A stretch of DNA of 64,000 nucleotides. It comes from a bacterium (GTDB lineage Bacteria > UBA8248 > JACPRG01 > G963555815). The translations under genes were made by a program, and so were the position numbers. Within the stretch, counting starts at the first letter, position 1, and every line of letters begins with the position of its first letter. Location of the stretch: NCBI GenBank assembly GCA_965261595.1, contig CBDHDG010000006.1, positions 480,001 through 544,000 of the forward strand, in the 5' to 3' direction. A model generated the notes under the pieces. It was not told the origin of the DNA, did not search any database, and was given only the letters and a program-made list of their open reading frames with translations. This document shows, piece by piece, positions 2,253 through 39,577 of this stretch.

Positions 2253-3659
2253 ATGTTCTTCGAACAAGTCGTACGCCTGGAAACCGGCTGCGTCTCCTAT
2301 GTATGCGGTTGTCCCGGGGGCGGTGAGTGCGCGGTGATCGACCCGCTCTGGGACCCGGCGCCGTACGCACGCATCGCCCAATCTCAAGGCGTATCCATCC
2401 GATACGTCATCGACACCCATTCCCACGCAGACCACGTCTCCGGAGCCCGGCGGCTCGCGCGGCTCACGGGCGCCGAGCTTATCCTTCACGAACTGGCCGA
2501 AATCGAGTATCCCGCACAGCGCGTCAAAGACGGCGACACATTCCGGATGGGATCCGTCCGGATGGAGATCCTCCATACGCCGGGCCACCGGCCGGAGCAC
2601 ATCATCGTCGCCATCACCGATCTCAGCCGCACGCCCGAGCCCTGGATGATCTGCACGGGCGATTTCGTTCTCGTCGGCGACATCGCTCGGCCCGATCTGG
2701 CCCAATCCGCCGCGGAGGGCGCGGGGGAGCTGTTCGACAAGGCCCTGCCCCGCGTCGCCGGGCTGCCCGACCACGTCGAGGTCTACCCGGGCCACGTGGG
2801 GGGCTCGACGTGAGGACGCTCGCTCAGCGGCAAGTTTGCCACCACACTCGGATTTGAGCGCCGCCACAACGCGGCCTTCCAAATGAAGAAACGCGACGAC
2901 TTTATCCGCCACATGTCCGAGGGACTGCCCGATCGGCCGGCGAATATCGCGCGGATCGTCGCCAACAACCAGGGAACCCTCCCCCTGACCCTGGAGGCGC
3001 CCGAGGCCCGGCCGGTTCCGCCGTCGGAGGCGTCGCGGTGGATGGAGGAGGACCCGGCGATCCGGATGATCGACATGCGCGAACCCGCCGGCTTCGGCGA
3101 GGCCCACGTCCCCGGGGCGGGAAACCTCCCGATCTCCAGCGCCGAGTTCGAGCAGCGGGCCGGGTGGGTCTTCGACCCCGACACCCCGTTCCTCCTTCTC
3201 GGCGAAAACGACCGCGACGCCCGGCGAGCATCGCACAAGTTGGCCTTTGTGGGACTGGACAGCAACGTTCGGGGATTCATCCCGGGCGGAATGCCGGCTT
3301 GGCGCGACGCGGGACTTCCCTCCGCGTCCCTTGACCAGATCTCCGTCGAGGGGCTTCATGAGCACCTGCGCGGTGACGCCGGGAACGGCTGGAATATCGT
3401 CGACGTGCGAGAGGACGAGGAGTGGACGGAAGGGCACATCGAGGGGGCCCACCACATGAATTTCAAGAAGATGGGCAAAGCGGATCTTGACCTGCCTTTC
3501 CCCCGCGGGGAGACCCTGGCCGTCATCTGCGGCGGGGGGATACGCAGCAGCACCGGCGCAAGCCTTCTTCAGGGACACGGCTACTCCGGCGTGATCAACG
3601 TCGTGGGCGGCATGAGCGCGTGGCGCGCCGCCGACTACGAGGTCGCCACGGAGAATTGA
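2253..3659 (+). CDS. Persulfide dioxygenase (MBL fold)-rhodanese-rhodanese fusion, CstB-like; predicted selenoprotein (TGA 2811-2813 = Sec187), 468 aa
   Basis: ORFs 2253-2813 and 2883-3659 are in the same frame with one stop between them. Reads PGHVGGST-U-GRSLS, matching the family motif PGHGAGSxCG. Also HSHADH, HTPGH, TGD, and C-terminal rhodanese ICGGGIRS. Confidence 0.88.
2814..2843 (+). promoter_or_regulatory. Putative bacterial SECIS element
   Basis: Hairpin GGCAA-GT-TTGCC (2829-2840) with apical GT 21-22 nt after TGA, similar in shape and spacing to the E. coli fdhF SECIS (GCAG-GT-CTGC). Confidence 0.65.
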
Positions 3660-3750
3660 GGACACCGGGACCGGCCCGCGGTTCGAAAGCAATCCATTGA
3701 CGCGAAGAGGGCCAGGGCGGACAGTCCGCCGCGCCCACAGGGAGTGATTT

Positions 3751-5307
3751 GTGGTCACCTATGGATTCGTCATCGACAACCGGAAGTGCATCGGGTGCCA
3801 CGCCTGCACGGTCGCCTGCAAGGCCGAGAACGAGGTCCCCATCGGGGTGAACCGGACTTGGGTCAAGTACATCGAGAAGGGGGAGTTTCCCCTCACCCAG
3901 CGGAAGTTCTCCGTCATGCGGTGCAACCACTGCGCCGACGCCCCCTGTGTGGAAATCTGCCCGGTGACCGCCCTCTACACCCGGCCCGACGGAATCGTGG
4001 ACTTCGACAGCCAGCGGTGCATCGGCTGCAAGGCGTGCATGCAGGCGTGTCCCTACGACGCCATTTACATCGACCCGAACGATCAGACCGCCGCGAAATG
4101 CAATTATTGCTCCCACCGGACGGACGTCGGCCTCGCGCCCCCCTGTGTCACCGTCTGTCCCACGCACGCCATCATCTGCGGCGACCTGGAGGACCCGGGA
4201 AGCGAGATCGCGGGCCTCGTGAACCGCGAGGCGGTCCAGGTCCGAAAACCCGAGAAAGGGACGGACCCGAAGCTTTTCTACATCGAAGGGGACGCCGCTT
4301 CTCTCGACCCTACAGCGGCCTCTCCCGCGGACAGCTATATGTGGAGCCAGGGCGGGGGGGGCGGGGGGGAGACGCTCGAAACGCCCCGCGCCCTTTCCGG
4401 GGGGGGGGCGGCCGGTCCAGACCCCGCAAGCGGACTCGCCGGGCGTCTGGGGACCCTCGCCCGGCGCGTCTACGATGCGCCCCGTGAACAGATGGTCTGG
4501 GGGTGGAAGGTTTCTTTATACATCCTGACGAAGGCCGTCGCGGCCGGGGCGTTCGCCATCCCGCTGTTGGCCTTCGGCCCCGGCCGGCCGCCCGGCCCGA
4601 TGGGGTGGACGGGCGCCCTGCTCGGCCTCATCTTCCTCGGGCTGACCGGTCTCCTTCTCATCCAGGATCTTCGCCGGATGGACCGCTTTCTCTACATTTT
4701 CCTTCGCCCCCAGTGGAAGTCGTGGCTGGTCAAAGGGGGGTTTGTGTTGTTCGGGTTCGGCGGGGTGATCGGCCTGTGGCTCATCAGCGGAATCCTGGGA
4801 GGACGCGCCTTCCAGTCCGCTTTGACCTGGCCGGGGGTCGCCCTGTCTTTTCTGGCGGCCGTATACACGGCCTTCCTGTTCGCGCAGGCCAAAGGGCGGG
4901 ATTTCTGGCAGAGCCCGCTCCTATCGGTCCACATGCTCCTCCACGCGGTTTTGGCCGGGGGGGCGGCGTTGCTCCTGTTCAGCCCGTTCTTTCCGGCGGC
5001 GGCCGGCGACCGGTTGAAGGAGATCCTCCTGGGGGGGCTCGGGGTGAGCTTCCTGGCTTTCATGGGGGAGCTTTTCTTCCCCCACCCGACAAAAGACGCG
5101 CGCGCCGCGGCCCAAATGATCCTGCGCGGTCCCGGCGCGCTCCTGTTTTGGGGAGGCGTCGTGGCCCTGGGTCACGCCGCGGCCGCCGGCCTGCTGCTCT
5201 CGGGAATCGGCGGCCTCGAAGTCCTCAGCGCTCCCTTGATCCTGGGCGGGGTCTTCGCCGCCGCCCACCTCTGGGTGACCATTCCGCAGCGGATCCCGCT
5301 GAGTTGA
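3751..5307 (+). CDS. Fused 4Fe-4S subunit (NrfC/PsrB/DmsB-like) + NrfD/PsrC membrane anchor
   Basis: CIGCHACTVAC, CNHCADAPCVEICP, CIGCKACMQACP, KCNYC...PCVTVCP, then a Gly-rich linker and a multi-TM domain with DLRRMDRF and SWLVKGG motifs. Confidence 0.9.
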   Translation: MVTYGFVIDNRKCIGCHACTVACKAENEVPIGVNRTWVKYIEKGEFPLTQRKFSVMRCNHCADAPCVEICPVTALYTRPDGIVDFDSQRCIGCKACMQACPYDAIYIDPNDQTAAKCNYCSHRTDVGLAPPCVTVCPTHAIICGDLEDPGSEIAGLVNREAVQVRKPEKGTDPKLFYIEGDAASLDPTAASPADSYMWSQGGGGGGETLETPRALSGGGAAGPDPASGLAGRLGTLARRVYDAPREQMVWGWKVSLYILTKAVAAGAFAIPLLAFGPGRPPGPMGWTGALLGLIFLGLTGLLLIQDLRRMDRFLYIFLRPQWKSWLVKGGFVLFGFGGVIGLWLISGILGGRAFQSALTWPGVALSFLAAVYTAFLFAQAKGRDFWQSPLLSVHMLLHAVLAGGAALLLFSPFFPAAAGDRLKEILLGGLGVSFLAFMGELFFPHPTKDARAAAQMILRGPGALLFWGGVVALGHAAAAGLLLSGIGGLEVLSAPLILGGVFAAAHLWVTIPQRIPLS

Positions 5308-5317
5308 GGAGCGCCGA

Positions 5318-8206
5318 ATGAGCCACCAACCGAAACCCGGCTGGATCGAGCGAACGGCGGAGAGCCTCGGATGGATCCAACGGCTGGACCCGCCGCCCGC
5401 TCCCCGGGAAAAACGCCTGGCGCCGGAGGGGAAATTCGAGCAATATCCGCCCACCGACCGCTGGGGGGACTGGGCCGACCCGGTTCCGCCGGGCACCGAA
5501 GCGGACGCCTCGCGTGAGTGCGTCCTCATTCCCACCACCTGCTTCAACTGCGAAGCGGCCTGCGGCCTGCTCGCCTACGTGGACAAGGAGCGCCTGGAGG
5601 TCCGGAAGTTCGAGGGCAATCCCCTCCACCCGGGAAGCCGGGGGCGGAACTGCGCCAAGGGGCCGGCCACGATCAATCAGATTCGGGACCCCGATCGCAT
5701 CCTGCACCCCCTGAAGCGGGTGGGGCCGCGCGGCGGCGGCCGGTGGGAGCGGGTCGGGTGGGACGCGGTCCTGGACGACCTGGCCGCCCGCATCCGCGAA
5801 AGCCTCACCGGGGGAAAACCGGAGGAGGTGATGTATCACGTCGGCAGACCCGGCTACGAGGGATCCGTCGAGCGGGTCCTCAAGGCGTGGGGCATCGACG
5901 GCCACAACAGCCACACTAACGTCTGCTCGGCGGCCGCCCGTCTCGGTTATCACCTCTGGCAGGGGTCCGACCGTCCTTCCCCGGACCATCAACGGTCCCG
6001 CTTCATCCTCCTCATGAGCTCTCACCTGGAGGCGGGCCACTATTTCAACCCGCACGCCCAGCGCATCATCGAGGGCAAGCTGGCCGGCGCCAAACTGGCG
6101 GTCATCGACCCCCGGCTGTCGAATACGGCCGCCCGGGCGGATACCTGGCTCGCGCCTTATCCCGGGACCGAGGGGGCCCTTCTGCTGGCCATGGCCCATG
6201 TCCTCCTGGAAGAAGACCTCTTCGACCGGGCGTACGTGGAGACCTGGGTCAACTGGGAGGAGTATCTGAGGGAGGAGGCGGGCCTGTCCGGGGCCTCCTT
6301 TGATGTCTTTCTCTCAGAAATCAAAGAGGTCTACGCGGCGTACACGCCCGAATTCGCCGAAGCGGAGAGCGGCGTCCCGGCCGCGACGATCCGGAAGTTG
6401 GCCCGGGAGATCGGCCGGGCGGGGTCCGCCTTCGCGACCCACATCTGGCGGGGGGCCGCTTCGGGCCATCTGGGGGGGTGGCAGATCGCCCGCGCCCTTC
6501 ATTTCCTGAGCGTCCTGACCGGCAGCGTAGGGACCCCCGGGGGGACCGCGCCGGCGTCCTGGAACAAAACGAAACCGGCGCCCTTCGACACACCCCCCGC
6601 CGTCAAGTTCTGGAACGAGCTGATCTACCCGAGGGAATACCCCCTCTCGCATTATGAGATGAGCTTCCTCCTCCCCCACTTCCTGAAGGAGGACCGGGGA
6701 AAGCTCAGCGTATACTTCACCCGGGTCTACAACCCCATCTGGACCAACCCCGACGGCTTCACGTGGCTCGAAGTCCTCAAAGACGAGGAGAAGATCGGTC
6801 TGCACGCCGCAATGACGCCGACCTGGAACGAATCGGCCCTGTTCGCCGACTACGTCCTGCCCATGGGGCTCGCGGGCGAGCGTCACGACGTCCAGAGCCA
6901 GGAAACCCATTCGGGGATCTGGGTCTCGTTCCGCCAACCCGTCCTGCGGGTGGCGATGGAGCGGATGGGCAAACCCGTCCAGTGGACCTACGAGGCCAAC
7001 CCGGGGGAGGTGTGGGAAGAGGATGAGTTCTGGATCGAGCTCTCCTGGCGGATCGATCCGGATGGGGATCTCGGCATCCGGCGTCATTTCGAATCCCCCT
7101 ACCGGCCGGGGGAGAAGGTCACGGTCGAGGAATACTACCGCTGGATGTTCGAGAACAGCGTGCCGGGACTCCCGGAGAAGGTGGCCGAAGAGGGCCTCAC
7201 CCCCATCGAGTACATGAAAAAGTACGGGTCCTTCGAGATCCAAAAGGACATTTTCCAAAAGTACACCCGGCGGCTTCCGGCCGAAGAGATGGAGGGCGCG
7301 TCCATCGATCCCCGGACCCGCGTGGCTTCCAGAGACGGCCGGCCGATCGGCGTGGAGATCGCCGGGCGGGTCCTCGAGGGATTTCCGACCCCCTCGCGAA
7401 AACTGGAGTTCTATTCCTCCACGCTGAAGGATTGGGGCTGGCCCGAGCACGCCCTGCCCGGATACGTCTTCAGCCACATCCGTGAAGAAGACATGGGCCC
7501 GGGGGAGCTCATCCTCCTGCCGACCTTCCGCCTGCCCACGCTCATCCACACCCGGTCGGCCAACGCCAAGTGGCTGCTTGAGATCTCCCACCGGAACCCG
7601 GTCTGGATGCATCCGAAGGACTGCGGCCCGTTCGGGCTGAAGACGGGGGACCTGGTCAAGGTCCACACCGAGATCGGGTATTTCGTCAATCGCGTCTGGG
7701 TCACCGAGTCCATCCGGCCGGGGGTGATCGCCTGCTCCCACCACGCGGGCCGGTGGCGGCTGGACGAAAACGAGGGGGGAGGGGGGCGGATGGGCGCCGC
7801 CCTGGTCCGCCTGGAAGAACGGGAGAAGGGCCAATGGCTCCTCCGCCAGATTCACGGCATCAGGCCCTATGAAAGCGAGGACCCGGACACCGCCCGGATC
7901 TGGTGGCAGGACCCCGGCGTCCATCAGAACGCGGCCTTTCCCGTTCACCCGGACCCCGTGAGCGGGATGCACTGCTGGCATCAGAAGGTCCGCATCGAGA
8001 AGGCCGGCCCCGATGACCGGTACGGAGACGTCTTCGCGGACACCCGGAAGTCCTTTGAGATTTACCGCGAGTGGCTTCAGAAGACCCGTCCGGCGCCCGG
8101 CCCCGGCGGATTGAGACGTCCCCTCTGGCTGAATCGTCCCATTCCCTGCGAGCGGGACGCCTACCAATTGACCCCGGAACCGCCGGTGGACGGCCCCCAG
8201 GCGTGA
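5318..8206 (+). CDS. Molybdopterin (bis-PGD) oxidoreductase catalytic subunit, Psr/Phs/Sre/Soe-like, no Tat signal
   Basis: CFNCEAAC...NCAKG 4Fe-4S motif, SHTNVCS (Cys Mo ligand), ADYVLP, HTRS, C-terminal dinucleotide-binding domain; no RRxFLK at the N-terminus. Confidence 0.9.
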   Translation: MSHQPKPGWIERTAESLGWIQRLDPPPAPREKRLAPEGKFEQYPPTDRWGDWADPVPPGTEADASRECVLIPTTCFNCEAACGLLAYVDKERLEVRKFEGNPLHPGSRGRNCAKGPATINQIRDPDRILHPLKRVGPRGGGRWERVGWDAVLDDLAARIRESLTGGKPEEVMYHVGRPGYEGSVERVLKAWGIDGHNSHTNVCSAAARLGYHLWQGSDRPSPDHQRSRFILLMSSHLEAGHYFNPHAQRIIEGKLAGAKLAVIDPRLSNTAARADTWLAPYPGTEGALLLAMAHVLLEEDLFDRAYVETWVNWEEYLREEAGLSGASFDVFLSEIKEVYAAYTPEFAEAESGVPAATIRKLAREIGRAGSAFATHIWRGAASGHLGGWQIARALHFLSVLTGSVGTPGGTAPASWNKTKPAPFDTPPAVKFWNELIYPREYPLSHYEMSFLLPHFLKEDRGKLSVYFTRVYNPIWTNPDGFTWLEVLKDEEKIGLHAAMTPTWNESALFADYVLPMGLAGERHDVQSQETHSGIWVSFRQPVLRVAMERMGKPVQWTYEANPGEVWEEDEFWIELSWRIDPDGDLGIRRHFESPYRPGEKVTVEEYYRWMFENSVPGLPEKVAEEGLTPIEYMKKYGSFEIQKDIFQKYTRRLPAEEMEGASIDPRTRVASRDGRPIGVEIAGRVLEGFPTPSRKLEFYSSTLKDWGWPEHALPGYVFSHIREEDMGPGELILLPTFRLPTLIHTRSANAKWLLEISHRNPVWMHPKDCGPFGLKTGDLVKVHTEIGYFVNRVWVTESIRPGVIACSHHAGRWRLDENEGGGGRMGAALVRLEEREKGQWLLRQIHGIRPYESEDPDTARIWWQDPGVHQNAAFPVHPDPVSGMHCWHQKVRIEKAGPDDRYGDVFADTRKSFEIYREWLQKTRPAPGPGGLRRPLWLNRPIPCERDAYQLTPEPPVDGPQA

Positions 8207-8300
8207 GCGTCTTCGCCGGCCCGCCATGGCCCGGATGGAAGGCCCGCCCGCCCCGCCCCGCCCGACCAATCGCGGCGGGAACGGTTTGCGCGCAAGCTGA

Positions 8301-9116
8301 ATGGAAATGCTCTGGATCTATCTCCTGATCGGTCTCATTACGGGCTTTTGCTCCGGTCTGATCGGCGTGGGCGGGGGGTTTATTCTGATCCCGCTCCTCC
8401 TGCTCGCCCGCGTCCCCATGGAAGTGGCCGTCAGCACCAGCCTGGTTTTCGTCCTGTTCAGCGCGGCCTCCGGGGCGTTGCGACACGGGTTTCAAGGGAC
8501 GGTGGACCGGCGTCTGGCCGGGTCGGTCGCCCCGGTTTCGGTCCTGACCGCCTTCGCCGGCTCCCTGTTGACCGTCCGGTTCCCCACCTCCGTGCTTCAG
8601 TCGCTCCTGGGCATCTGCGTCCTGGCCGGTCTTTATCTCCTGAATCGCAAGGCCCGCCTCCAGGTGGAGCTCACCGCGACGGACCTGCCGGGCCGCTGGA
8701 CCTACGACCGGACGGTCGAGTGGGGGGAGGAATCCATTCACTATCGCCTGGACTTGAAGAAGGCGGCGGGGGTCGGCGGCGTGGTGGGTTTTCTGGCCGG
8801 CCTGTTGGGCGTCGGCGGGGGGTTCTTGATAATCCCCGCCTTCGTCGGCCTGATGGGCATCCCCCTGCGCGTCGCCATCGGAACCTCCCTCCTCACCATC
8901 CTGGCGTCCGCCTTCGTGGGGACTGTGATGCACTGGGGACAAGGAAGCATGGACCTCACCGTGGTCTGGACGACGATCCTGACCGGGATGATCGGGGCGC
9001 AGCTCGGAGCCCTCTGCGTGCCGAAAATGCAAGAGGCGGGGATGAAAATCCTGATGAACGTCCTGCTGGGACTCTCGGCGGCTTATCTATTCGTTCTGGC
9101 GGGAATCGGACTTTGA
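8301..9116 (+). CDS. Sulfite exporter TauE/SafE family
   Basis: Two GxxSGLxGVGGG repeats, AIGTSL, multiple TM helices. Confidence 0.9.
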   Translation: MEMLWIYLLIGLITGFCSGLIGVGGGFILIPLLLLARVPMEVAVSTSLVFVLFSAASGALRHGFQGTVDRRLAGSVAPVSVLTAFAGSLLTVRFPTSVLQSLLGICVLAGLYLLNRKARLQVELTATDLPGRWTYDRTVEWGEESIHYRLDLKKAAGVGGVVGFLAGLLGVGGGFLIIPAFVGLMGIPLRVAIGTSLLTILASAFVGTVMHWGQGSMDLTVVWTTILTGMIGAQLGALCVPKMQEAGMKILMNVLLGLSAAYLFVLAGIGL

Positions 9117-9200
9117 GTCCGCACGGTCTGGGAAAAAATACTGGACAGAAAAACGGCGACCCCCGAGCGGGGCCGCCGGCCACATCGGAATCCCTCCGTC

Positions 9201-9440
9201 TTACAGCGTGGCGTGCGTTCCGTCACACAGGGGTTTGTTCCCCGACTGCTTGCAGCCGCAGAATCCATACGTTTCACCCGCCTTCACTGAGTGGGTCATC
9301 GGCCGGAACGGGGTTTCCTTGTGGGAGCCGTCACAGAAGGGCTGGTTGCTGCTATGCCCACAAGCGCACCAATGAACCTCACCGTCTTTCTCGGCGGTGT
9401 GCTTGTAAGATCCTTTTTGAGCGATATTCGGCTTTTCCAT
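9201..9440 (-). CDS. CDGSH iron-sulfur domain protein (two motifs)
   Basis: WCACGHSSNQPFCDGSH and FCGCKQSGNKPLCDGTH. Confidence 0.92.
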   Translation of the reverse strand: MEKPNIAQKGSYKHTAEKDGEVHWCACGHSSNQPFCDGSHKETPFRPMTHSVKAGETYGFCGCKQSGNKPLCDGTHATL

Positions 9441-9710
9441 GAAAGGTGGTCTCCTTTTTGCTCATACACGGTCCCGGGGTGCACATAGGCCCCCGAAAAG
9501 ATGATGGACACGACTGCCGTCCGGGCAATCATATATGATGGGGTGCTCGGCGCACAACCGCCGAACTCACCGACACGGACCGGAAATTGGTGAAACGTCA
9601 AGCTTTCCGGCATTTTCCATTGTTGAAACACCTTAAGAACGCGCTTTTGCGGGGCCTCCCAGTCGGCCGGATAAGTCCGGCCGCCCTGGAATCTTCCGTC
9701 TCGCCCGACC

Positions 9711-10373
9711 TCAGGCGTGAACCGCGTCCGCCTTCTTTTCTCCGGCCTCCTGCTTCTCTTCAGCCAGGATTTCCCGGATAACGCCCTCCCGAACTTCCGG
9801 CTTCGTCCAGGTGCCCTTGTAGACGATGTTCCCCTCCCGGTCGGCGATGTACGCCATGTTGGACAGCCAACCGAAGGCCTCGTAAATCTTCTGGTCCATA
9901 CCGTCCACCAGAACCGTTACCTTCTTGATACCCTTTTGCTCGACCAGCTCCTTGGCGTAGCCCATTTTCTGCTCATACGAAGCGTGAGCTTCGTACTTGC
10001 CGAAGATCCCTTCATTCGCGTGCGGCGCGCGGACGTAGATGTTGAAAATCTCCAAATCGTCCCCGTACCTTTCGGCCAGATTTTCCATGTGCGGCACTTG
10101 CCGCCGGTACGGCGGTCACGTGATAGCGCCGAACTCGAAGAGCTGGAGCTTCTTTCCGATCAGGTCCACCGTATTGACGCGGCGGCCGTCCGTGGTCTCG
10201 AGCTGGACCGTCGGGATCTTCGAGCCGAGGGCCGCCGCGTCCTGGAATTTTGCGTACACGGCGCTCACCTTCTCGTTGAATTTTATCTTGACGAGCTTCC
10301 ACCAGTTCAGGAACAGGAACGAGTAGAACTTGCTCGGCGGGTTTCTGCCGAATTCACCTCTGGTCTGAATCAT
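9711..10373 (-). CDS. Iodothyronine deiodinase-like thioredoxin-fold protein; predicted selenoprotein (TGA 10118-10116), 220 aa
   Basis: ORFs 10116-10427 and 9711-10097 are in frame. Reads FEFGAIT-U-PPY (cf. deiodinase FGSxTUPxF), then IYVRAPH. GGAGG RBS lies 6 nt before ATG 10373. Confidence 0.88.
10088..10115 (-). promoter_or_regulatory. Putative bacterial SECIS element
   Basis: Hairpin GCGGC-AAGT-GCCGC (10104-10091) with GT 19-20 nt after TGA; shares GCGGCAAGT with the 2814 element. Confidence 0.65.
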
Positions 10374-10736
10374 CCAATCCTCCCTGTCGGCCTCGGGATT
10401 TGCATCTCCTCCGGACACTCGCCACACAAACGGCCGGCCTCAGCGAGAAACCCTGCGGCGATCACGCGAATCACCCCATTTTCCATTTTACCCCCTAAGA
10501 TTGTAAATAAGCGAGGGCGCGTAATATTCCACCCGATTGCTCCATTCGCCCGGCCGACCCGGTCCGGGAGACCCCGGCCAACCGTCCCGCCGGTTGAAGG
10601 AAAAAACCCTTTCTGTTAACATCCAGGCCGACCCTGAAGCGAAGCGCCATTCCCCACCGAGAACCTTATCCTTGACGGGTCGCCTCACAACAGGAGGGGA
10701 TGGGCAACGGCGCGCGGGAACGCGGAGATTGGAACG

Positions 10737-14025: not shown

Positions 14026-14739
14026 TCAAACCGAAGGCTTGAGGATCTCCACGCCGAGCGGCTTGTTCTGCGGGCCGCTGCACCCCCCCGGGCAGGCGGA
14101 GATCGCGACGATGCAGTCCATCTCGGCGTACAGATCGATGGAATCCCCCTTCTTCGCTTCGGCGTCCAGGAAGAAGAGGCGGTCCCCCTCATCGATCCCT
14201 GTCGTCATGAAGATGTTGAACGCGTCGTGCACATGGTCGGGGCTCAGGCCGAATTCCGCGATCGCGCGGGCCAGGTTGTTCTGACAATTCGGGCGGCCCT
14301 TCTCGCCCGTCAACAGCTCGAAGTACACCTCGTTGCATCTCGAAAAAAGCAAATCGTGCGAGGCCGCGCCGTGCGGGAGGGGCCTGTGCTCAACCGTATC
14401 GGCGATGATCGTGAACATGGGACGCATCCCGGGCGGCGTGCTCCAAAGCTGACTTCCAACCGTCAGGTGCGCCCCCTCGAATATCCGGGTCCTCCCAGAC
14501 CAGAACATCTCCCGGGGGTCGTCTTTGCCGAAGGCGTTGAAATCCGCCACTTGGGATCCTTCAACCTCGATCACGCGCAGGACCTGACCCTTCTCGACGA
14601 CGAAGGCCCGGCCGGTTTCTTTCGGAATGACGAATTCCTGAAGCAGCTCGCCGTCCTCGCGGCCTTCGGCAAGCCTCTGATAGAAAGCTTCATCTTTGAC
14701 GTGGAACTTCGGATGTTGGTCGAACTTTTTCGGGTTCAT
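14026..14739 (-). CDS. DUF1989 / urea carboxylase-associated family protein
   Basis: QVADF, HDLLFSRC, NCQNNL, AFNIFM, ISACP. Confidence 0.88.
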   Translation of the reverse strand: MNPKKFDQHPKFHVKDEAFYQRLAEGREDGELLQEFVIPKETGRAFVVEKGQVLRVIEVEGSQVADFNAFGKDDPREMFWSGRTRIFEGAHLTVGSQLWSTPPGMRPMFTIIADTVEHRPLPHGAASHDLLFSRCNEVYFELLTGEKGRPNCQNNLARAIAEFGLSPDHVHDAFNIFMTTGIDEGDRLFFLDAEAKKGDSIDLYAEMDCIVAISACPGGCSGPQNKPLGVEILKPSV

Positions 14740-14887
14740 CCACGCTTCCCCATGATCCCGGCCTGAAATGAAAAGGCGGCCCCATCAGGGCCGCCCGCTT
14801 CGCCAATGAGAGACTCTTCCGGGGAGGAAGAGGGGGGGGTCCGGAAGAAGATGCCCGTAAAAAACCTCCGGAGCGAGATCCGCCTCC

Positions 14888-15541
14888 TTACCGCTTCACC
14901 GCCGCGCCCCGCTCGGCCCAAGCGGCGATGACCTCATCGGCCTTGCCGACCCGGCCGAAGAACCTGCGGGCGTTGGCGAGGGTGCCTTCGTGAAACTCCT
15001 TGCTCGTCGTCGCGCAGGCGTCCTCGACGATGACGACGTTGTAATCCAGCATGAAGCCCTCCCGGGCCGTGCTCTCGACACACACGTTCGTGGCCACGCC
15101 CGTCATGATGATCGTCTTCACGCCCAGGTTTCGCAGCATCAGGTCCAGGTTGGTCCCGGTGAATCCGCCGTAGCGGTTCTTCGTCAGGAGAACGTCGCCG
15201 TCCTTCGGCTCGAACCCCTCGCAAAGCTCCGCCCCCCAGCTTCCCTCTTCCACGATGGGGACGGCGTCGGGACCGAAGTTGAGCTCCTCCAGGCGCTGTT
15301 TGGCCGGCCAATCAGCCTCCGGCGAGCGGGCGACCCGGAAGATGACGACCTTGCAGCCGGCGCCGCGGGCCTCCTCCATCAGATTTTCAAGACGGGGGAG
15401 GATCTCCTGGATCGGGCCCATGTCCGTGCCCAGCTTCCCGAAGGCCCCCTCGTCATGGCAGAAATCGTTCTGAACGTCGATCACAATGAGCGCCGAGGTG
15501 GAGGGGTCCACCCATTCGCCCAGGTCGGTTACGTCCTTCAT
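14888..15541 (-). CDS. Cysteine hydrolase (isochorismatase family, RutB-like)
   Basis: IDVQNDF, KNRYGGF, GVATNVCVESTAR (D-K-C triad). Confidence 0.9.
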   Translation of the reverse strand: MKDVTDLGEWVDPSTSALIVIDVQNDFCHDEGAFGKLGTDMGPIQEILPRLENLMEEARGAGCKVVIFRVARSPEADWPAKQRLEELNFGPDAVPIVEEGSWGAELCEGFEPKDGDVLLTKNRYGGFTGTNLDLMLRNLGVKTIIMTGVATNVCVESTAREGFMLDYNVVIVEDACATTSKEFHEGTLANARRFFGRVGKADEVIAAWAERGAAVKR

Positions 15542-15825: not shown

Positions 15826-16023
15826 GTGTCTCGTAAAAGGTTTTACATTTCGTGACCCGAATGGTCCCGCTCCGGCCGGGCAAGGAGTCAACCGACCCAA
15901 ACGCCCGGCCTGCCGAAAGGTGTAAACCCGGTGTTTTCAAAGGGAATTATATAGATAAGTGGCATTTCCCCCTTAACATCCGTGCCACTTTCCTATAGGA
16001 TTATCTGTAGGAGGTCAAGGGAG

Positions 16024-17011
16024 ATGGCACACAAAGCACCTGGAAAAGCCCACCGCGTAGGACTCGGATTCGTCCAGTTCACCGAGATGTTCCCCGACAA
16101 CGAGACGGCGGAGAAGTGGATTGCCGAAGTGCGGTGGCCCGATGGCCCGCGTTGCCCAGTGTGCGACTCGGACAAGGTGCAGCACCCGACCGGTCACAAG
16201 ACCATGCCGTACCGGTGCCAAGTCAAGGGATGCCGGCAGAAGTTCAGTGTGAAGACCGGCACCGTCATGGAATCGTCGAAGGTCACCTATCGGGAGTGGG
16301 CCATTGCCGTGTACCTGTTCTGTACGAACCTCAAGGGCGTGTCGTCCATGAAGCTGCACCGGGACCTGAACCGGACTCAAAAGACGAGCTGGCATCTTGC
16401 CCACCGGCTCCGCGAGGCATGGGTGCATGACGAAGGGTTTGCGTTCACCGGACCGGTTGAAGTAGACGAGACCTACATGGGTGGCAAGGAACGCAACAAG
16501 CATGGCGTCAAGAAGATCAACAAGGGTCGTGGGCCTGTTGGCAAGAAGGCGGTTATCGGCATGAAGGACCGGGACACCAACTGGGTCACCGCCATGACGA
16601 TAGACAGGACGGACGCGCCCACGTTGCAGGGTTTCGTGCTTGGGGCAGGTGGCACCCGACGCGAAGGTGTACACCGATGACCACGGCGGGTATTACGGCC
16701 TGCCGAACCACGAGACGGTCAAGCACTCCGTGGGCGAGTACGTGGACGGACAGGCCCACACGAACGGTATCGAGTCCTTTTGGTCCATGCTCAAGAGGGG
16801 CTACCACGGGGTGTACCACCGCATGAGTCCCGAGCACCTGGACAGGTACGTGACGGAGTTCTCGGGACGCCACAATCTGCGGAATGAGGATACGGTTGCC
16901 CAGATGGTCGCCGTGTTCCGGGGCACGGTCGGACGGCGGTTGAAGTACGATGACCTGATTGCCCCCAAGCTCGCTCCGGTGCTGACCGCGCCGGGGAGCG
17001 ACGTGTTCTAG
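16024..17011 (+). pseudogene. IS1595 transposase, +1 frameshift near 16642-16645
   Basis: Zn ribbon CPVC/C..GC, VEVDETY in one frame; VYTD, HTNGIESFWS, YVTEF in the next. An extra G in GGGG separates them (may be a sequencing error). Confidence 0.88.
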
Positions 17012-17062
17012 GGAGGCGGCTTGGCTGGGGAATTATAGCGGATAGCCAAGCCGCCCATGGCA

Positions 17063-17290
17063 TCAAGCGGAAATCCATTTGAGGTATGCGAAGACCAAGG
17101 AAAGTGCCGTGGCAATAGAGACTAGCGCGCCCATGACTACCTGGAACTTGGTGGGATAATGCTTGTCGAGATCATTGCGGAGGCCGGTGACTCTTTGTCC
17201 AAGAACGGCAACTTTGACTGCGATATCTTCCCTATCCTCACGGTCGCCTTCCTGTGGCGGGGGTCCGCCGGGAGGTCGCCGAACCGCCAT
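17063..17290 (-). CDS. Small hypothetical protein with C-terminal TM helix (IS cargo)
   Basis: Start overlaps the upstream stop (TAATG); short coiled segment then a hydrophobic helix. Confidence 0.55.
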   Translation of the reverse strand: MAVRRPPGGPPPQEGDREDREDIAVKVAVLGQRVTGLRNDLDKHYPTKFQVVMGALVSIATALSLVFAYLKWISA

Positions 17291-17574
17291 TACTTCCGAC
17301 TTTCAGCTTCCGTAAGCCACTCCCAAAGGGACGGCGACGTGTAGCCTGAATATGCGCCATTCAACTTGAAGACTGCGCCGGTCGCGGCGTCGACCTGCTG
17401 AGCCCCCTTGATGCCGATGTTTTCAGCAATCGTCTCGGTAAGCTCTCCCGAAACAAGATAGACCCTGTTGGAAAAGTCGTAATGGTTGGGGTAGTGCGCC
17501 TCGATTTTTTCGGTGACTGCCCCTACGGCATCATCGGGAATATCTTCGTCCAGCACAATAATGAAGATCGGCAT
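17290..17574 (-). CDS. Hypothetical 94-aa protein (IS cargo)
   Basis: G-rich RBS, alpha/beta pattern, ends LWEWL; coupled to the downstream ORF. Confidence 0.65.
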   Translation of the reverse strand: MPIFIIVLDEDIPDDAVGAVTEKIEAHYPNHYDFSNRVYLVSGELTETIAENIGIKGAQQVDAATGAVFKLNGAYSGYTSPSLWEWLTEAESRK

Positions 17575-17867
17575 TGGTCAACCCCCCCCTCTCTCGTGAG
17601 GCATGACCCCACTGTTAACACGAAACCGCCTTCCGTTCGAGAGGATTCTGACCCTCTTGTGCGCCCGTGGGTTGTGATGTGAATGGAGCACGCGACGTTG
17701 TACGACACAACGTGTACCGTGAAAAAATCTCGACCTTCCCGGTCATCAACCTCCGCGTTTCCGGTTGACATCTCCGCCCACCCTTCCTAGTCTCGCACCC
17801 GAACGCATCCAACGGGAGTCCCGGCAACCTCGCCGGGACATTGATCCGAACCAACGGGAGGCATGAC

Positions 17868-18619
17868 ATGAAGAAGGCCGGAGGAATCATCGGAGTCGTA
17901 GCGGGCACCTTGGGCGTGATCGCCGCTTTCATCACTCTGTTCGTGGGCGGGGTGGCTCTGCCCTCGAAGCGGAAGGAGCAAGCACGGTAGTCGGCCTCGG
18001 CTGGGCCGGCGTGTTCTGCTCGTTCTTGGTCATCGGGCTCGGCACCGCCACCATTGCCGCCAAGGGCAAGCTCTCCGCTTGGCTGCTCGTGGTCGTGTCC
18101 CTCATCACGGCGGTCGTAGGCGGAACGATTGTCGCCATCTTCATGGCCCTCGCCTTGCTGGGTGGCATCCTGGCACTCTTGGATCGCACCCCGTCAGCCT
18201 CGATAGGCGTACTGTTGCCTTTCCTGGCGGTTGCATTCACGCTTCCAGCTTTCTCGGCACCGGTTCCTGTCAAACTGTCCGAGTATGCGTTCGATTTTCC
18301 AAAGTACGGCCATGAGATCACGGTAGACGGCAAAACCCGGAACCTTCAGGAAAAACTGACGGCGGACGACTACATCACCATCGACGATGATGGGTACAAG
18401 CTGAAGACGCTCATTGACCGGATGGGCCGTAAAGATCGCCAGCAGTTTATTTCGTTCTTCAACGAACACTGCATCACAGGCTTTATGGGGAAGCCCTGCG
18501 CGATCACGGCCTCAGGGGAAATCGAGTTGAACGAAGACATGAAAATGATCTTCCGGATGAGTACGACGAAGATCAGCAAAGGCGGAGAAGAGTGGTCGAA
18601 TGCCAACAAGGCCAAGTGA
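17868..18619 (+). pseudogene. Membrane protein with C-terminal soluble domain, frameshift near 17954 (IS cargo)
   Basis: GGAGG + ATG 17868 gives MKKAGGIIGVVAGTLGVIAAFITLFVGGV. It continues as GSALEAEGASTVVGLGWAG into ORF 18011-18619 if one G is restored. Confidence 0.6.
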
Positions 18620-18640
18620 TCCCTGCGAGGAGAAAACCCG

Positions 18641-18847
18641 ATGAAGACCAAGGGCAAGCGGAAGCCTATCAAGCTGACCCACCCGGAGTACCAGCCGACG
18701 AAGGCCGAGCAGGAAGAACAGACGGTGCTGAGGAACGCGGACGGGTCGGTGCCCACGCCGACCGAAGTCATGCGCGCCCTGACCCGTCCCGTCGAAGTCG
18801 CCTACCTGGAGAAGCCCAAGAGAGCCAGCCTTTCACGCCCCTCCTAG
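18641..18847 (+). CDS. Small basic hypothetical protein at IS right end
   Basis: GAGGAG RBS, 68 aa, ends 14 nt before the right TIR. Confidence 0.6.
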   Translation: MKTKGKRKPIKLTHPEYQPTKAEQEEQTVLRNADGSVPTPTEVMRALTRPVEVAYLEKPKRASLSRPS

Positions 18848-18896
18848 CCTAGCAGGGAGCGTGCCACTTATCTATATAATTCCCTTTTCAAAACAG

Positions 18897-18920
18897 GTAG
18901 GGCGGGCATCTTGCCCGCCT
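18897..18920 (+). repeat. GTAG-type REP
   Basis: GTAGGGCGGGCATCTTGCCCGCCT; related copies at 13970 (+) and 30296-30319 (-). Confidence 0.7.
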
Positions 18921-19058
18921 TCTCCGCTCAGCGGGCCGGGAGGGGGAAAGGGGGAGGGGGGAGAGGGGGGGATTGATCCCGCCACGTTCACCGCTTTATA
19001 ATGACTTTCATCCTTCAATGAAGAATGGACTGACCCATCGCATGGGAGACCGATTGCC

Positions 19059-19685
19059 ATGACACCGGATGCCGGAGAAGTTCAAGGAGAAGTCCTCGAG
19101 GACCGAATCGTCGAGCCCCGGGGCCATTACGCACGGGAGGTCCGCCAGGGAGAGGTCCTTCGGATCATCGACATCCAAGGCCAGCAGGTGGCCGACTTCC
19201 TCGCCTTCAACCTCAACCGGCTGGAGGAGAGACTCTCGCCCGAGAACACGGTGAACCTGAACCGCTCGGTGTTCCCCAAGGTCGGCTACACGCTGTTTTC
19301 CGACGAGGCCGGAAAGCTCATGACCATCATCGCCGATACGTGCGGGGTCCACGACATGATCGCCGGGGCCTGCTCCCGGTTCACCAACGAGTACCGCTAC
19401 GGGGTGCCCGACACGCCCAACTGCCGGGACAACTTCGCCGCCGCCGTCAAACCCTGGGGCCTGAACTGGAAGGACGTTCCGTACAACATGAACGTCTTCA
19501 TGAACTGCCCCATCCAGCCCGACGGAACGTTCACCATTGAAACACCCAAATCCAAGGCGGGCGATTATGTCGATTTCCAGGCGGACATGGACGTCCTGGC
19601 GGCCATGTCCAACTGTCCGCAGGAGCGCAACCCCTGCAACTCGGGCGAGCTGAAACCCATGCGGGTCATCCACTACAAACCCTGA
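19059..19685 (+). CDS. DUF1989 / urea carboxylase-associated family protein
   Basis: QVADF, HDMIAGAC, NCRDNF, NVFM, SNCPQ..PCN. Confidence 0.9.
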   Translation: MTPDAGEVQGEVLEDRIVEPRGHYAREVRQGEVLRIIDIQGQQVADFLAFNLNRLEERLSPENTVNLNRSVFPKVGYTLFSDEAGKLMTIIADTCGVHDMIAGACSRFTNEYRYGVPDTPNCRDNFAAAVKPWGLNWKDVPYNMNVFMNCPIQPDGTFTIETPKSKAGDYVDFQADMDVLAAMSNCPQERNPCNSGELKPMRVIHYKP

Positions 19686-19757
19686 CGGGACCGTGACGAC
19701 GGCCGGCGGACACCCTTCAAACGCCCCCCCCCCCCCCGGCGCCCTGGAGACCGAGAC

Positions 19758-20582
19758 ATGCGCGGCTACAAAAACCCGGACCTTCTCTGGACCCCAGACC
19801 GGCTGCGGCGGACCCTGGACGGCGGCCCCCCCCTCCCTCCTCTGATTCTGGACATCCGGACGACGCAGGATTACGTGGCCGGGCACATCCCGGGCGCGGT
19901 CCACCTGGACCTCTTCGGCCTGTCCGTCCGGCACACCGGGCCGGAATCCCTGGACTCGTTCTTCTGGATGATGGAGGGCCTGTTCGGCAACCGGGGCGTC
20001 GATCACGGCAAGACCGTCGTCGTCTACGACGAACGGACGGGCACGAGAGCGGCGCGGGCCTTCTGGTTCCTGGAGTATTTCGGGCATGAAGACGTCCACG
20101 TCCTGGACGGCGGATACGACGCCTGGGAGATGGCCGCGCACCCCGTGAGCCGCGACCCGGTGATACCCGAGGGGGCGAGCTTCAAGGCCCGGCCGGTCGC
20201 GGACCGCCTCGCCACGGCGGAGACGATCCGGAAGGGACTCGACGACGGCGGATGCGTGGTCCTGGACACCCGCACCGACGGCGAGTATCACGGAACCGAG
20301 CTCCGCGCCAAGCGGGGCGGGGCGATCCCCGGCGCCGTCCACATCGAGTGGAAGAACAACGTCGAAGACGGCGCGTACAAGAACGCGGAGGACCTCGCCG
20401 CCCTCTACGCGCCGGCCGGCGTGACGCCGGACAAGGACGTATCGGCCTACTGCCAAGGCGGGTACCGCTCGGCTCACGCCTACCTCGCCCTCAGGCTGTT
20501 GGGGTACGAAAAGGTCCGGAACTACATATCGTCCTGGGCCGAATGGGGAGAGCGCGAGGAGCTGCCGATCGAGACGCCGTAG
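19758..20582 (+). CDS. Tandem-domain sulfurtransferase (rhodanese, SseA/CysA-like)
   Basis: GHIPGA, LDGG, active loop YCQGGYRS, SWAEW. Confidence 0.9.
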   Translation: MRGYKNPDLLWTPDRLRRTLDGGPPLPPLILDIRTTQDYVAGHIPGAVHLDLFGLSVRHTGPESLDSFFWMMEGLFGNRGVDHGKTVVVYDERTGTRAARAFWFLEYFGHEDVHVLDGGYDAWEMAAHPVSRDPVIPEGASFKARPVADRLATAETIRKGLDDGGCVVLDTRTDGEYHGTELRAKRGGAIPGAVHIEWKNNVEDGAYKNAEDLAALYAPAGVTPDKDVSAYCQGGYRSAHAYLALRLLGYEKVRNYISSWAEWGEREELPIETP

Positions 20583-20727
20583 ATTGCAAGGGCGCGCGGC
20601 CGGACGGGCGACAGCAGGATCGCTGATCCGATTGAAAGAAACAGGGCGGATGAATCACCATCCGATGACCTCGGCAGGCCGGGCCTCCCGCCCGGTCCTT
20701 CATTCCAGAATTCATCCAAAATCCCGC

Positions 20728-22119
20728 TTATAAATAATCTTCCAGCTTCACCTCATCCAGGAACGGGTATTCCAGAAGCTCGTATTCCGACCGGTCCACG
20801 CCTTCCGGGATGGTGGCGTCGATCCCCATCTTGGACGTGGTGGGCAGCGCGCCCTTGGGGAGCTGCGAGGCCCGAAGCGTGGGGTCCAGGTGCTTGCCGC
20901 GCGCGCCCGAGATGATGATCACGTCCTCGTCCGGCCGCACCCGGAAGGCCATCGCCCGTTCGAGATCCATCCAGTCGGTGATGTCCACGTCATCATCGGT
21001 GACGATGACCAGCTTGACGGCGTGCAGGGCCATGAGCGCCAGCAGGGCGTTCTTGCCCTCGCCCGGGCGTTTTTTGATGGACGCGAACAGGTGCCAGTAG
21101 CAGCAACTCGCCGGGGTCGAGTAGACCGCCGTCGTCTGGACGCTCGCCTCCCGCAGCGCCCGCCAGCCGGCCGCCTCCATGGGCGGCGCCTCCAGCCAGT
21201 CGTTCTCCCAGGGCATGAAAACAGTCTGGAAGATGGGGTCCTTCCTGTGGGTGATCGCCTTGACCTTGAACACCGGGTTCCAGCGAATCGAGCACTGGTG
21301 CCCCGTGAAGTCCCCGTACCGGCCCTCGTCGATGGTCCAGCCGTCGGCGGAGATCTCCCCTTCCAGGACGATCTCGGCCGAGGCCGGAACTTCCAGGTCC
21401 AGGGTGGCGCACTTCGTCAGTTGGACGGGCTCGCCGTAGAGCCCCCCCGCCACCGCGAACTCGTCGAACCCCGGCGGAGCCTTGTAGGCGGCGGAAAGGA
21501 TCTCGGGAATGCCCGTTCCCAGGGCGATGGCGATGGGAAGCGGCTCCCCCCGGTCGAGCGCCCGCTGATACGTGAACCGCATGTCCGAGGGCGACACCAG
21601 GTCGATCCCCGTCTCGTTGGGCGTGCGGTACATCAGGCGATAGCAGCCGACGTTGCGGCGCCCCTCTTCATCCTTGCAGACCGCGATCCCGGCGGAGATG
21701 TATGGGCCGCCGTCCTTTCGGTGCTGGAAGGGAATGGGGATCTCCGTCAGGTCCACCTCGTCCCCCACTTTCACGACCTCCTGGACGGGACCGTCCGGAA
21801 CGATTTCGGCGGGAATCGGGCGCTCCAGGGCGTCCATGAAGACCCGGCCCAGGACCTTCTCGTCGCTGGCCAGGCCCAGGGCCAGACGCCTCCGGGACCC
21901 AATCAGCCCGCCGACAACGGACATGCCGTAGTCCGCGACGTTCTCGAAGAGGACGGCCTGATTGGACTTGGAGAGAAGGGTGTGCATGTACTTCGGAGGG
22001 ACGGGCTTTTTGATCCGGAGCAGCTCCCCGTTCGCCTCCAGGTGATCCAGCAGGCCGCGCATGTCCCGGTAGGGGATCCGGCCGCTCATGGCGGCGCGCC
22101 CGCCGTTTTTGCCGTTCAT
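20728..22119 (-). CDS. UbiD family prFMN-dependent (de)carboxylase
   Basis: DGGPYI, NVGCYR, AEIVLEG, EGRYGD, VTDDDVD, KMGIDAT. Start may be 22089. Confidence 0.92.
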   Translation of the reverse strand: MNGKNGGRAAMSGRIPYRDMRGLLDHLEANGELLRIKKPVPPKYMHTLLSKSNQAVLFENVADYGMSVVGGLIGSRRRLALGLASDEKVLGRVFMDALERPIPAEIVPDGPVQEVVKVGDEVDLTEIPIPFQHRKDGGPYISAGIAVCKDEEGRRNVGCYRLMYRTPNETGIDLVSPSDMRFTYQRALDRGEPLPIAIALGTGIPEILSAAYKAPPGFDEFAVAGGLYGEPVQLTKCATLDLEVPASAEIVLEGEISADGWTIDEGRYGDFTGHQCSIRWNPVFKVKAITHRKDPIFQTVFMPWENDWLEAPPMEAAGWRALREASVQTTAVYSTPASCCYWHLFASIKKRPGEGKNALLALMALHAVKLVIVTDDDVDITDWMDLERAMAFRVRPDEDVIIISGARGKHLDPTLRASQLPKGALPTTSKMGIDATIPEGVDRSEYELLEYPFLDEVKLEDYL

Positions 22120-25914: not shown

Positions 25915-26748
25915 TCAGGAAAACCGCTTCTTGTCTGCCGTGGCTTCCATGCCCTGTTTGGTCTCGGGATCCTCGAGGCCGAGCATCGAACCGATTTGCA
26001 CTTCCATCGCCTTGAAGGCGTCCTCTGTTTTGGTCTTCAAGATTCGAGGCTGATCCAGATCCACCGGGAGGATGTCCATGACCTTTCCGGGCCTGGCCGT
26101 CATGACCACAACCCGTTCGGCCAGGAGGATGGCCTCCGGAATGCTGTGGGTGATGAACAGAATCGTCGTCCGCGTCTCTTCCCAGATTCGCAGCAGGACG
26201 AACTGCATGCGATCCCGCGTCAGGGCGTCGAGGGCCCCGAAGGGCTCGTCCATCAGGAGTATCGGGGGGTCGCTGAGAAGCGCCCGCGCCAGCGCGACGC
26301 GCTGCTACATGCCGCCCGACAGCTCGTGCGGGTAGGCCTTCTCAAAACCGTCGAGACCCGTGAGATGAAGCAGGTCCCGGGTGCGCTCGGCCGCCTGGGC
26401 CATCGGGAGCCGGCAGACCTCGGCCGTCAGCATGACGTTATCGAACACGCTTCGCCACGGAAGGAGCGTCGCCTGCTGGAAGACAAAACCGATGTCCGCC
26501 TCGGACTCCTCGATAGAGCGGCCGCTCAGGCTGATCTCGCCCGAGGTGACCGGGATGAGGCCCGCGATGAGCCGGATGAGGGTGCTCTTCCCGCAGCCGC
26601 TCGGTCCCACGATGGTGAGAAGCTCACCCTCGCCGATTTCGAAGTCCATGCCGTCCAACGCCGTGACGGAACCGGTGCGGCCCTCAAAAACCTTACAGAG
26701 CCGGCGGCATTCAATCAAAGCCGTCGCGCTTGCGGCCACCATGAACAC
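25915..26748 (-). pseudogene. ABC ATPase with in-frame TAG (26307-26305) in the signature motif
   Basis: GPSGCGKS, LSGGM*QRVALARAL, LMDEPFGALD, ITH; both ORF pieces are in the same frame. Confidence 0.88.
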
Positions 26749-27888: not shown

Positions 27889-28117
27889 AATGCTCCCCCG
27901 AATCAAGCCATAATGCTACCTCTCGGCCGGAAAAAAATCAATCAATCGGAGTGCGCTCGCTGGCCGGAAACGCCTGTCCCAAACGGAACTCCTCTTCGTT
28001 TGCGTCGGGATCCATGCCGACCCGGCAAGCCTCCATCCGGGCCGGGTTTCCGGCCGTGTCGCATTGCGCTAAAGTCCTTCTTCTGAGGGAGACCGATTTT
28101 CCAAAGGGGGCGGGCGA

Positions 28118-35457: not shown

Positions 35458-35702
35458 CGTCTCCCCCCCCCTCCTCTTCCCCCCCAATTGACGGAGGCTC
35501 GCTGCCGGTGAAAGTCCATTTTGCCCTTTACCATTCAGTCTTACAAGGACCGCCGATCTTTTGATAGCCAGGTGGATGATCCCCCATGGTAGGATGAGTC
35601 ATCAGGCATCTGCAAAATGTCTTCCGGAATCCGGGTCGCCAATCGACCAAAAGGGGTCGGACCTCGCAAGATTGTCCGGAGGGAGAAAGGGGAGGGAGAG
35701 GG

Positions 35703-36677: not shown

Positions 36678-36775
36678 CGCGGAGGCGCGGGATTATCCCG
36701 AATTTCTCATCAACCATTCGACGCACAAGGGTGGCGGGGGGGCCAACTGCGGGTTCACCCATTCGCGAGAGCGGT

Positions 36776-36876: not shown

Positions 36877-36912
36877 ATTCTTATTCAACCGCCGGCGTCC
36901 GGGTGCAACTCC

Positions 36913-39565: not shown

Positions 39566-39577
39566 GCGCTCACTCCC

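Follow-up and report, generated by a model that had tools for sequence, protein, structure and literature searches.

In-frame UGA codons, very probably for selenocysteine, in a CstB-like and a deiodinase-like gene of one bacterial contig, and the hairpins that follow them

The stretch analyzed here, 64,000 nucleotides (nt) of contig CBDHDG010000006.1 from a bacterium of the lineage UBA8248 (hereafter the window), carries two genes that are each interrupted by one in-frame TGA. Gene 1 encodes a CstB-like persulfide dioxygenase-rhodanese and gene 2 a deiodinase-like protein with a thioredoxin fold (Table 1). Both TGAs are very probably selenocysteine (Sec) codons, as judged from the alignments described below, and each is followed inside the coding sequence by a small hairpin that contains the same 9-mer, GCGGCAAGT. 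We consider it likely that both are Sec codons in genuine selenoprotein genes, each provided with an ordinary bacterial selenocysteine insertion sequence (SECIS), and that the 9-mer results from protein motifs and codon choice. The original prediction for this DNA had regarded the 9-mer as a SECIS consensus specific to the lineage.

Table 1. Coordinates of the two genes, of the elements around their in-frame UGA codons and of the operon between them (positions in the window; nt numbers count the U of UGA as nt 1).
Feature	Position	Strand	Basis
Gene 1, CstB-type persulfide dioxygenase (metallo-beta-lactamase fold) + pseudo-rhodanese + rhodanese, 468 amino acids, predicted Sec187	2253–3659	+	Pfam, structure alignment
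In-frame UGA of gene 1, very probably Sec187	2811–2813	+	U187-G188 on CstB C201-G202; Cys in homologues
9-mer GCGGCAAGT, copy 1	2827–2835	+	Motif search; codons S-G-K-F
Site-1 apical hairpin GGCA[AGUU]UGCC, nt 19–30, G24 U25	2829–2840	+	Local folds, hairpin scan
Site-1 extended SECIS-like structure, 7-bp lower stem (nt 11–17/44–50) carrying the apical hairpin	2821–2860	+	60-nt minimum free energy fold
Gene 2, deiodinase-like/redoxin thioredoxin-fold putative selenoprotein, 238 amino acids, predicted Sec104	9711–10427	-	Pfam, structure alignment
In-frame UGA of gene 2, very probably Sec104	10116–10118	-	Aligned Cys/Sec, truncated fragments
9-mer GCGGCAAGT, copy 2	10096–10104	-	Motif search; codons R-R-Q-V
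Site-2 apical hairpin GCGGC[AAGU]GCCGC, nt 15–28, G22 U23	10091–10104	-	40-nt fold, hairpin scan
Site-2 alternative long stem-loop, nt 4–58, 9-mer paired with downstream CUGGCCG	10061–10115	-	60-nt minimum free energy fold
Intervening operon: Fe-S/NrfD fusion (Psr/Ttr B+C-like), DMSO-reductase-family molybdoenzyme, TauE/SafE exporter	3751–9116	+	Pfam

Two genes with an in-frame UGA

The reading frame of gene 1 is continuous from end to end apart from the TGA. Its product matched Lactamase_B and two Rhodanese domains in Pfam, while no NCBIfam model scored above its cut-off, and the nearest solved structures, 3tp9 and 3r2u (the CstB of Staphylococcus aureus), could be aligned over the whole length. 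The HxHxDH motif and the rhodanese cysteine (Cys) are kept, and the features of a CstB-type enzyme were all found, namely the metal ligands in the metallo-beta-lactamase (MBL)/persulfide dioxygenase (PDO) domain, a pseudo-rhodanese in the middle, the C-terminal rhodanese Cys and the metal-adjacent loop, in which the predicted Sec takes the place of Cys. A total of 120 homologues were listed, one of which is a C-terminal fragment, hence 119 full-length homologues cover the TGA column, and all 119 have Cys there. The aligned Cys is residue 225 of the 3r2u chain, which corresponds to C201 after an alignment offset of 24 residues. In the excerpted text of a 2026 preprint, the C201-G202 pair of CstB adjoins Fe(II), and C201, a Cys of the mobile loop that mimics glutathione, is essential and becomes persulfidated and S-sulfonated at the Fe(II) site (PMC12934615).

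Shorter proteins related to gene 1 tell where this gene is usually cut. Among the 120 best short matches, 119 (59–91% identity, mostly 184–186 amino acids) end right before U187, and the remaining one reads Cys at that position. Some of these short homologues lie on contigs of up to 3.7 Mb, some source names are Gemmatimonadota, Acidobacteriota and Krumholzibacteriia, and the annotation is either "MBL fold metallo-hydrolase" or "hydroxyacylglutathione hydrolase". Between the TGA of gene 1 and the next ATG, the family motif G-R..S-G-K..T-T-L-G-F-E-R-R-x-N runs on in frame, which excludes a simple split gene. When plasmids were searched by tblastn, 638 records were returned for gene 1, and the listed matches were all single-piece and of the Cys type with at most 43% identity; the same search with gene 2 gave one record, again a single-piece Cys-type match of at most 43% identity.

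Gene 2 also has a frame that is continuous apart from its TGA. Pfam assigned T4_deiodinase (48.4 bits), Redoxin and AhpC-TSA to the product, and its nearest solved structures are the type II and type III iodothyronine deiodinases, with U104 placed on the active-site Sec/Cys. In the TGA column, 10 of the 11 full-length homologues aligned have Cys and one has Ser. A protein search for near homologues came back empty, and a search of representative proteins then gave split fragments, including roughly 20 clusters of C-terminal pieces and two N-terminal ones (P0008 with 78% and P0049 with 91% identity) that stop at ...FEFGAIT.

In both genes, the in-frame TGA is thus aligned with Cys in homologues and stands between conserved flanks, as is characteristic of selenoprotein genes. 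Orthologues with the TGA were found elsewhere: both genes have one in L001, a syntenic contig of an uncultured-bacterium metagenome-assembled genome, and further ones are indicated by the 119 short homologues of gene 1 and the fragments P0008 and P0049 of gene 2, which end at the site. TGA is the commonest ordinary stop in the window, where it ends 29 predicted genes, and so it has not been reassigned. That neither TGA is a sequencing error, as the original prediction had argued, was borne out by their retention in the independent and about 95% identical L001, by the truncation of homologues at these positions and by their location on catalytic Cys positions. Other pairs of open reading frames (ORFs) in the same frame that are split by a TGA (at 18617, 19683, 1453–1451 and 55948–55946) proved on translation to be separate genes with junk linkers.

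Over 19,544 aligned positions, 5.15% differ between L001 and the window. Gene 1 differs at 7.5% of its sites, yet L001 shows no change in the 89 nt that come after its TGA; windows of 90 nt without any difference make up 4.6% of 1,902. Gene 1 has a ratio of nonsynonymous to synonymous differences of 1.37 and gene 2 one of 1.67, both among the highest of the region; in the 14 other genes with differences, the values lie between 0.15 and 1.58. The CDGSH gene has no difference in 80 codons.

Hairpins after the UGA codons and the shared 9-mer

Both sites are stem-loops within the ORF, directly 3' of the in-frame UGA. The hairpin of gene 1 (site 1) has the loop AGUU, which starts at nt 23, on a stem of 4 bp, with −3.7 kcal/mol in a simple evaluation and −5.2 kcal/mol in a 22-nt fold, and the hairpin of gene 2 (site 2) has the loop AAGU from nt 20 on a stem of 5 bp, with −8.4 kcal/mol. 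The minimum free energy (MFE) of 40 nt is −8.8 kcal/mol at site 1 and −12.7 kcal/mol at site 2, and that of 60 nt is −16.8 (z = −0.88) and −24.0 kcal/mol (z = −1.82), respectively. An apex with AAGT/GT, as originally predicted, is thus formed by the small local folds at both sites, while the 60-nt MFE fold of site 2 departs from it and uses a longer alternative. Rfam gave no match over the window at gathering thresholds, nor on the two 141-nt sites at E ≤ 10.

According to the bacterial SECIS (bSECIS) model, the loop has 3–9 nt, the upper stem 4–16 bp, the spacing from UGA to the apical loop is 16–37 nt and the MFE at most −7.5 kcal/mol, with a G in the first two loop positions that is mostly followed by G or U (PMC13188914, Fig. 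2 legend). The spacing is 19 nt at site 1 and 16 nt at site 2, compared with 18 nt in the fdhF control, and the rules on loop, stem, spacing and energy hold for both sites. The G rule holds for AGUU of site 1 and for the site-2 orthologue in L001, which has CGGU. Set against such a model, as had been suggested with the original prediction, site 1 agrees with every one of these rules and site 2 of the window with all but the G rule.

Of 3000 synonymous resamples that left the protein unchanged, 5.5% at site 1 and 4.1% at site 2 gave a hairpin as good as the actual one, and two minority codons, TTT (18%) and CAA (27%), stand in the actual hairpins. These low shares and the minority codons suggest modest selection at the RNA level on codon choice at both hairpins.

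The two copies of GCGGCAAGT were found again exactly at the positions first reported, at +14 to +22 after the TGA of gene 1 and at +12 to +20 after that of gene 2, i.e., 11–13 nt past an in-frame TGA. No other exact copy exists on the two strands of the window (128 kb). The reading frames do differ, as had been noticed, with AGC GGC AAG T (S G K F) in one gene and cGG CGG CAA GTg (R R Q V) in the other. Dinucleotide shuffles contained 0.41 copies on average, and 6 of 100 had at least two. Of 200,000 pairs of in-frame coding segments drawn at random from the window, 0.30% shared a 9-mer or longer match within a register of ±3 nt in the first 45 nt, a figure to be taken as an upper bound, as the sample still contained pairs that overlap; given both proteins and the codon usage of the window, the probability of the 9-mer is 0.092 × 0.066 = 0.006. 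When up to two mismatches were allowed, 17 copies had a TGA 8–16 nt upstream; this TGA is in frame for the two exact copies alone, and no copy comes after a true stop codon. The motif follows none of the 29 true TGA stops of the window; had it been equally common after stops, this would have spoken against the original prediction. The pattern is real and mildly improbable (p about 0.003–0.006), but it is post hoc and has n = 2.

The original prediction held that protein constraint does not explain the motif, a claim that the homologues do not support. The SGK of gene 1 is present in all 11 closest Cys-type homologues, and for gene 2, seven of 11 Cys-type homologues have Q in the same column and five have A-R-x-Q-V. 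Since SGK and RxQV are also kept by Cys homologues, for which no SECIS is required, the bases of the 9-mer are largely dictated by the protein. Nor does L001 support a fixed consensus of the lineage: the motif is kept in gene 1 and is changed to GCGGCCGGT in gene 2, where CG replaces AA in the loop (Q110P) and both the 5-bp stem and the GU stay as they are. The codon ACG precedes both TGAs in the window, as had been stated, and L001 has ACA before the TGA of gene 1. As a signal, ACG was rejected, being the commonest Thr codon (44%) at a place where Thr is a family residue.

Weighing of the explanations

If both genes are selenoprotein genes of the ordinary kind, each UGA would be followed, inside the coding sequence and about 20 nt downstream, by a short G+C stem with a 4-nt GU loop, to which SelB-GTP-Sec-tRNA(Sec) of the organism would bind with the ribosome positioned at the UGA. 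The 9-mer common to both sites would be the 5' strand of each stem together with the loop up to the GU. It would be shared because identical bases, read in different frames, can encode both S-G-K and R-x-Q-V, two protein motifs of ancestral origin, and because codon choice at both sites would have been tuned toward a GU hairpin. The functional requirement would then be generic, a stem and a GU at the right distance, and not the literal 9-mer. The pairing of the predicted Sec with Cys, the retention of the TGAs, the geometry of the hairpins, the change of the 9-mer in L001 and the conservation of the encoded residues are shown by the alignments and folds; SelB binding and actual Sec insertion at both UGAs we infer, and the hairpins would be two more SECIS elements of the usual bacterial type.

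An unlikely alternative is that GCGGCAAGU (or GCGGC-NN-GU) is a consensus specifically recognized by the SelB of this lineage and common to its selenoprotein genes. It would account for the near-identical offsets after the only two in-frame TGAs found, for the lack of a further exact copy in the window and for the low chance probabilities of 0.003 for random coding pairs and 0.006 given both proteins; GCGGC..GU also survives in L001, and one SelB must bind both elements. On the other hand, the closest relative has CG for AA, the GU takes loop positions 2–3 at site 1 and 3–4 at site 2, the GC with which the 9-mer begins pairs at site 2 but not at site 1, and the encoded residues are conserved where no SECIS is needed. 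The apex of site 1, moreover, is close to that of Escherichia coli fdhF, so the shared features look canonical rather than lineage-specific. Slightly less probable still, in our estimate, is that the small hairpins are not functional, that the true SECIS of gene 2, and perhaps of gene 1, is a longer structure and that the 9-mer match is a coincidence. The long stem of site 2, in which the 9-mer is one strand, is the 60-nt MFE fold and places its apical loop about 23 nt after the UGA, within the range of 16–37 nt. The L001 substitutions A20C, A21G and U39G add or keep pairs in it; yet these are gained pairs and not compensatory changes, all three are non-synonymous, and the apex of the long structure is weak, with a 2-bp helix and a 6-nt loop. 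The small hairpin of site 2 is preferred as the SelB site because it starts at nt 15, as the E. coli minimal element does. That the TGAs are not Sec codons at all, but nonsense mutations or pseudogenes, errors of assembly or genes naturally split to give two polypeptides, is very improbable. A single step leads from TGC or TGT to TGA, both genes have frameshifts and high nonsynonymous to synonymous ratios in L001, and Sec machinery is lacking within the window; against this stand the recurrence of the same stop position in 119 of 120 short homologues, some of them on long contigs, the location of both TGAs on catalytic Cys/Sec positions, the conserved motif that continues in frame after the TGA of gene 1, and the window copies, which are intact end to end when compared with solved structures.

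Several observations weigh against two ordinary selenoprotein genes, each with its SECIS. The 64-kb window contains none of selA, selB and selD, and no tRNA gene. The folding energies are unremarkable, as the 60-nt MFE is no better than in shuffles or synonymous resamples, and at site 2 the small hairpin gives way in the 60-nt MFE to the long alternative, whose energy goes from −24.0 to −30.4 kcal/mol (z = −3.04) with the substitutions of L001. The loop AAGU of site 2 in the window breaks the published G rule. A strict bSECIS-like hairpin (≤ −3.7 kcal/mol) follows 19.0% of 12,845 in-frame control codons, 15.1% of 1,691 other TGAs and 6 of the 29 true TGA stops. The narrower class to which both sites belong, a GU-containing tetraloop starting at nt 20–26, follows only 0.8% of the control codons, 0.8% of the other TGAs and 0 of 29 true stops, which speaks for the hairpins; on the opposing side, this class was defined after the data were seen. 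The DNA comparison covers a single relative, L001 (a 20.7-kb locus, taken from a single-protein scan), which has about 5.7× coverage and runs of N in its sequence. Uncompensated 1-nt insertions in the coding regions of L001 occur in the two putative selenoprotein genes only (window-equivalent positions 3079, 3322 and 9987); elsewhere, the cupin gene has a compensated pair of indels, those of the Fe-S/NrfD fusion, AtzD-like and rhodanese genes are net in-frame, and the other genes have none. The insertions may be errors of a low-coverage assembly or may reflect decay of both genes, and if the genes decay in L001, this contig constrains the SECIS less than is apparent.

Genomic context, meaning and known systems

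The two genes flank a Psr/Ttr-like module (3751–9440) that consists of the Fe-S/NrfD fusion, a molybdoenzyme of 962 amino acids, the TauE/SafE exporter and a CDGSH iron-sulfur protein; for the DMSO-reductase-family molybdoenzyme, NCBIfam had no equivalog above cut-off. A neighborhood of sulfur-compound redox genes fits a CstB-type enzyme. We tentatively propose, giving it rather less than even chances, that gene 1 stands for a widespread and uncatalogued family of Sec-type CstB persulfide dioxygenase-rhodanese proteins that gene callers truncate to "MBL fold hydrolases" of 186 amino acids, and that with gene 2 around the Psr/Ttr-like operon a selenium-dependent persulfide/polysulfide module is suggested. 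No bacterial selenoprotein of the MBL/PDO type was found in the main text and tables of a 2022 and a 2026 review (PMC9312934, PMC13188914), nor in the main texts of deep-Sep, BSepDB and GOS (PMC12013277, PMC13326102, PMC2398784), and a literature search on such selenoproteins, as far as excerpts go, led to the eukaryotic SelTryp only. The novelty of the family is provisional because the family list of BSepDB (Table S2), which lies beyond the main texts covered, could include it. If the Sec-type CstB clade is undescribed, it would add a new selenoenzyme to sulfide/persulfide detoxification and offer a natural Sec/Cys pair at the residue proposed, in the excerpt of the 2026 preprint, to carry the S-sulfonate intermediate (PMC12934615).

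For annotation, standard gene calling splits both genes, and homologues of gene 1 in at least 119 clusters are cut short in the same way. A caution also follows for the search of RNA elements: when two SECIS have a sequence in common but read it in different frames, it is not necessarily an RNA consensus, since either copy may go back to protein motifs older than the switch from Cys to Sec.

The window as a whole has a G+C content of 63.7%. Outside the two genes, an ABC-transporter ATPase gene (25915–26748, minus strand) has an in-frame TAG at 26307–26305 in its signature motif (LSGGM*QRVALARAL), with an intact frame beyond it, in a part of the window other than that covered by L001; this TAG is a nonsense mutation, a pseudogene or an error. 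A segment of about 3.0 kb (15942–18949) corresponds to 43 bp in L001 and was probably inserted recently as a mobile element. Within it are an IS1595-family transposase in two overlapping frames (15982–16680 and 16640–17011) and small ORFs with lower G+C at third codon positions (18011–18619 and 18641–18847), which have no Pfam match. An IS3-type element (45617–46935, plus strand) has an HTH_Tnp_1 ORF and an rve integrase ORF that overlap in different frames, arranged as is usual for a programmed frameshift; the next 2.5 kb or so show a weak coding signal and contain ORFs that match no family (47186–48135). Catabolic paralogues are spread over 257–2032, 14026–15541, 19059–22119, 26833–27906, 33130–42475 and 51626–52603. 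They comprise an AtzD/barbiturase-like ring-opening amidohydrolase, two DUF1989 proteins, two UbiD-type decarboxylases, three Rieske/VanA-type oxygenases, two molybdoenzymes of the xanthine-dehydrogenase type and a nitrilase-family CN hydrolase, and look like a region for the degradation of N-heterocycles or aromatics.

Among known systems, S. aureus CstB (3r2u) has the same three-domain architecture as gene 1, which retains the catalytic Cys of the rhodanese and aligns U187-G188 with the C201-G202 loop that is modified beside Fe(II) (PMC12934615, excerpt). It differs in that gene 1 has a predicted Sec at the 201 position, and the two sequences are only distantly similar (phmmer E = 3.5e-61). 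Among bacterial selenoproteins, the deiodinase-like family is already known (PF00837), as described in excerpts of the Sargasso Sea and GOS studies (PMC1088965, PMC2398784), and it shares with gene 2 the thioredoxin fold, the Cys homologues and, as predicted for gene 2, the Sec at the deiodinase active site and the SECIS directly downstream. The family motif given in reviews is UxxC, whereas gene 2 has U-P-P-Y and no resolving Cys at +3; its Pfam score is modest (48 bits), and the NCBIfam model deiodinase_rel stays below cut-off.

At the RNA level, both sites fit the bSECISearch consensus in loop, stem, spacing and MFE, with site 2 of the window lacking the early loop G (PMC13188914, Fig. 2 legend). 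The closest point of comparison is E. coli fdhF, whose minimal element spans nt 15–31 with a bulged U17 and the loop bases G23 and U24 (PMC8659212, excerpt). With fdhF of E. coli K-12 as the positive control, the same scanner found a loop GGUC from nt 22 on a contiguous stem of 4 bp, and the apical GU that the original prediction ascribed to fdhF is correct, as both this control and the excerpted paper place it at G23/U24. Both sites lack the bulged U on the 5' strand, and site 2 has its GU at loop positions 3–4 on a GC-only stem of 5 bp. In common with fdhF, both lie in the coding sequence just past the UGA and have a short stem with a 4-nt GU loop, of which the first base is nt 22 for fdhF and nt 23 and nt 20 for sites 1 and 2, respectively, and the apex GCA[AGUU]UGC of site 1 is identical to GCA[GGUC]UGC of fdhF at 8 of 10 positions.

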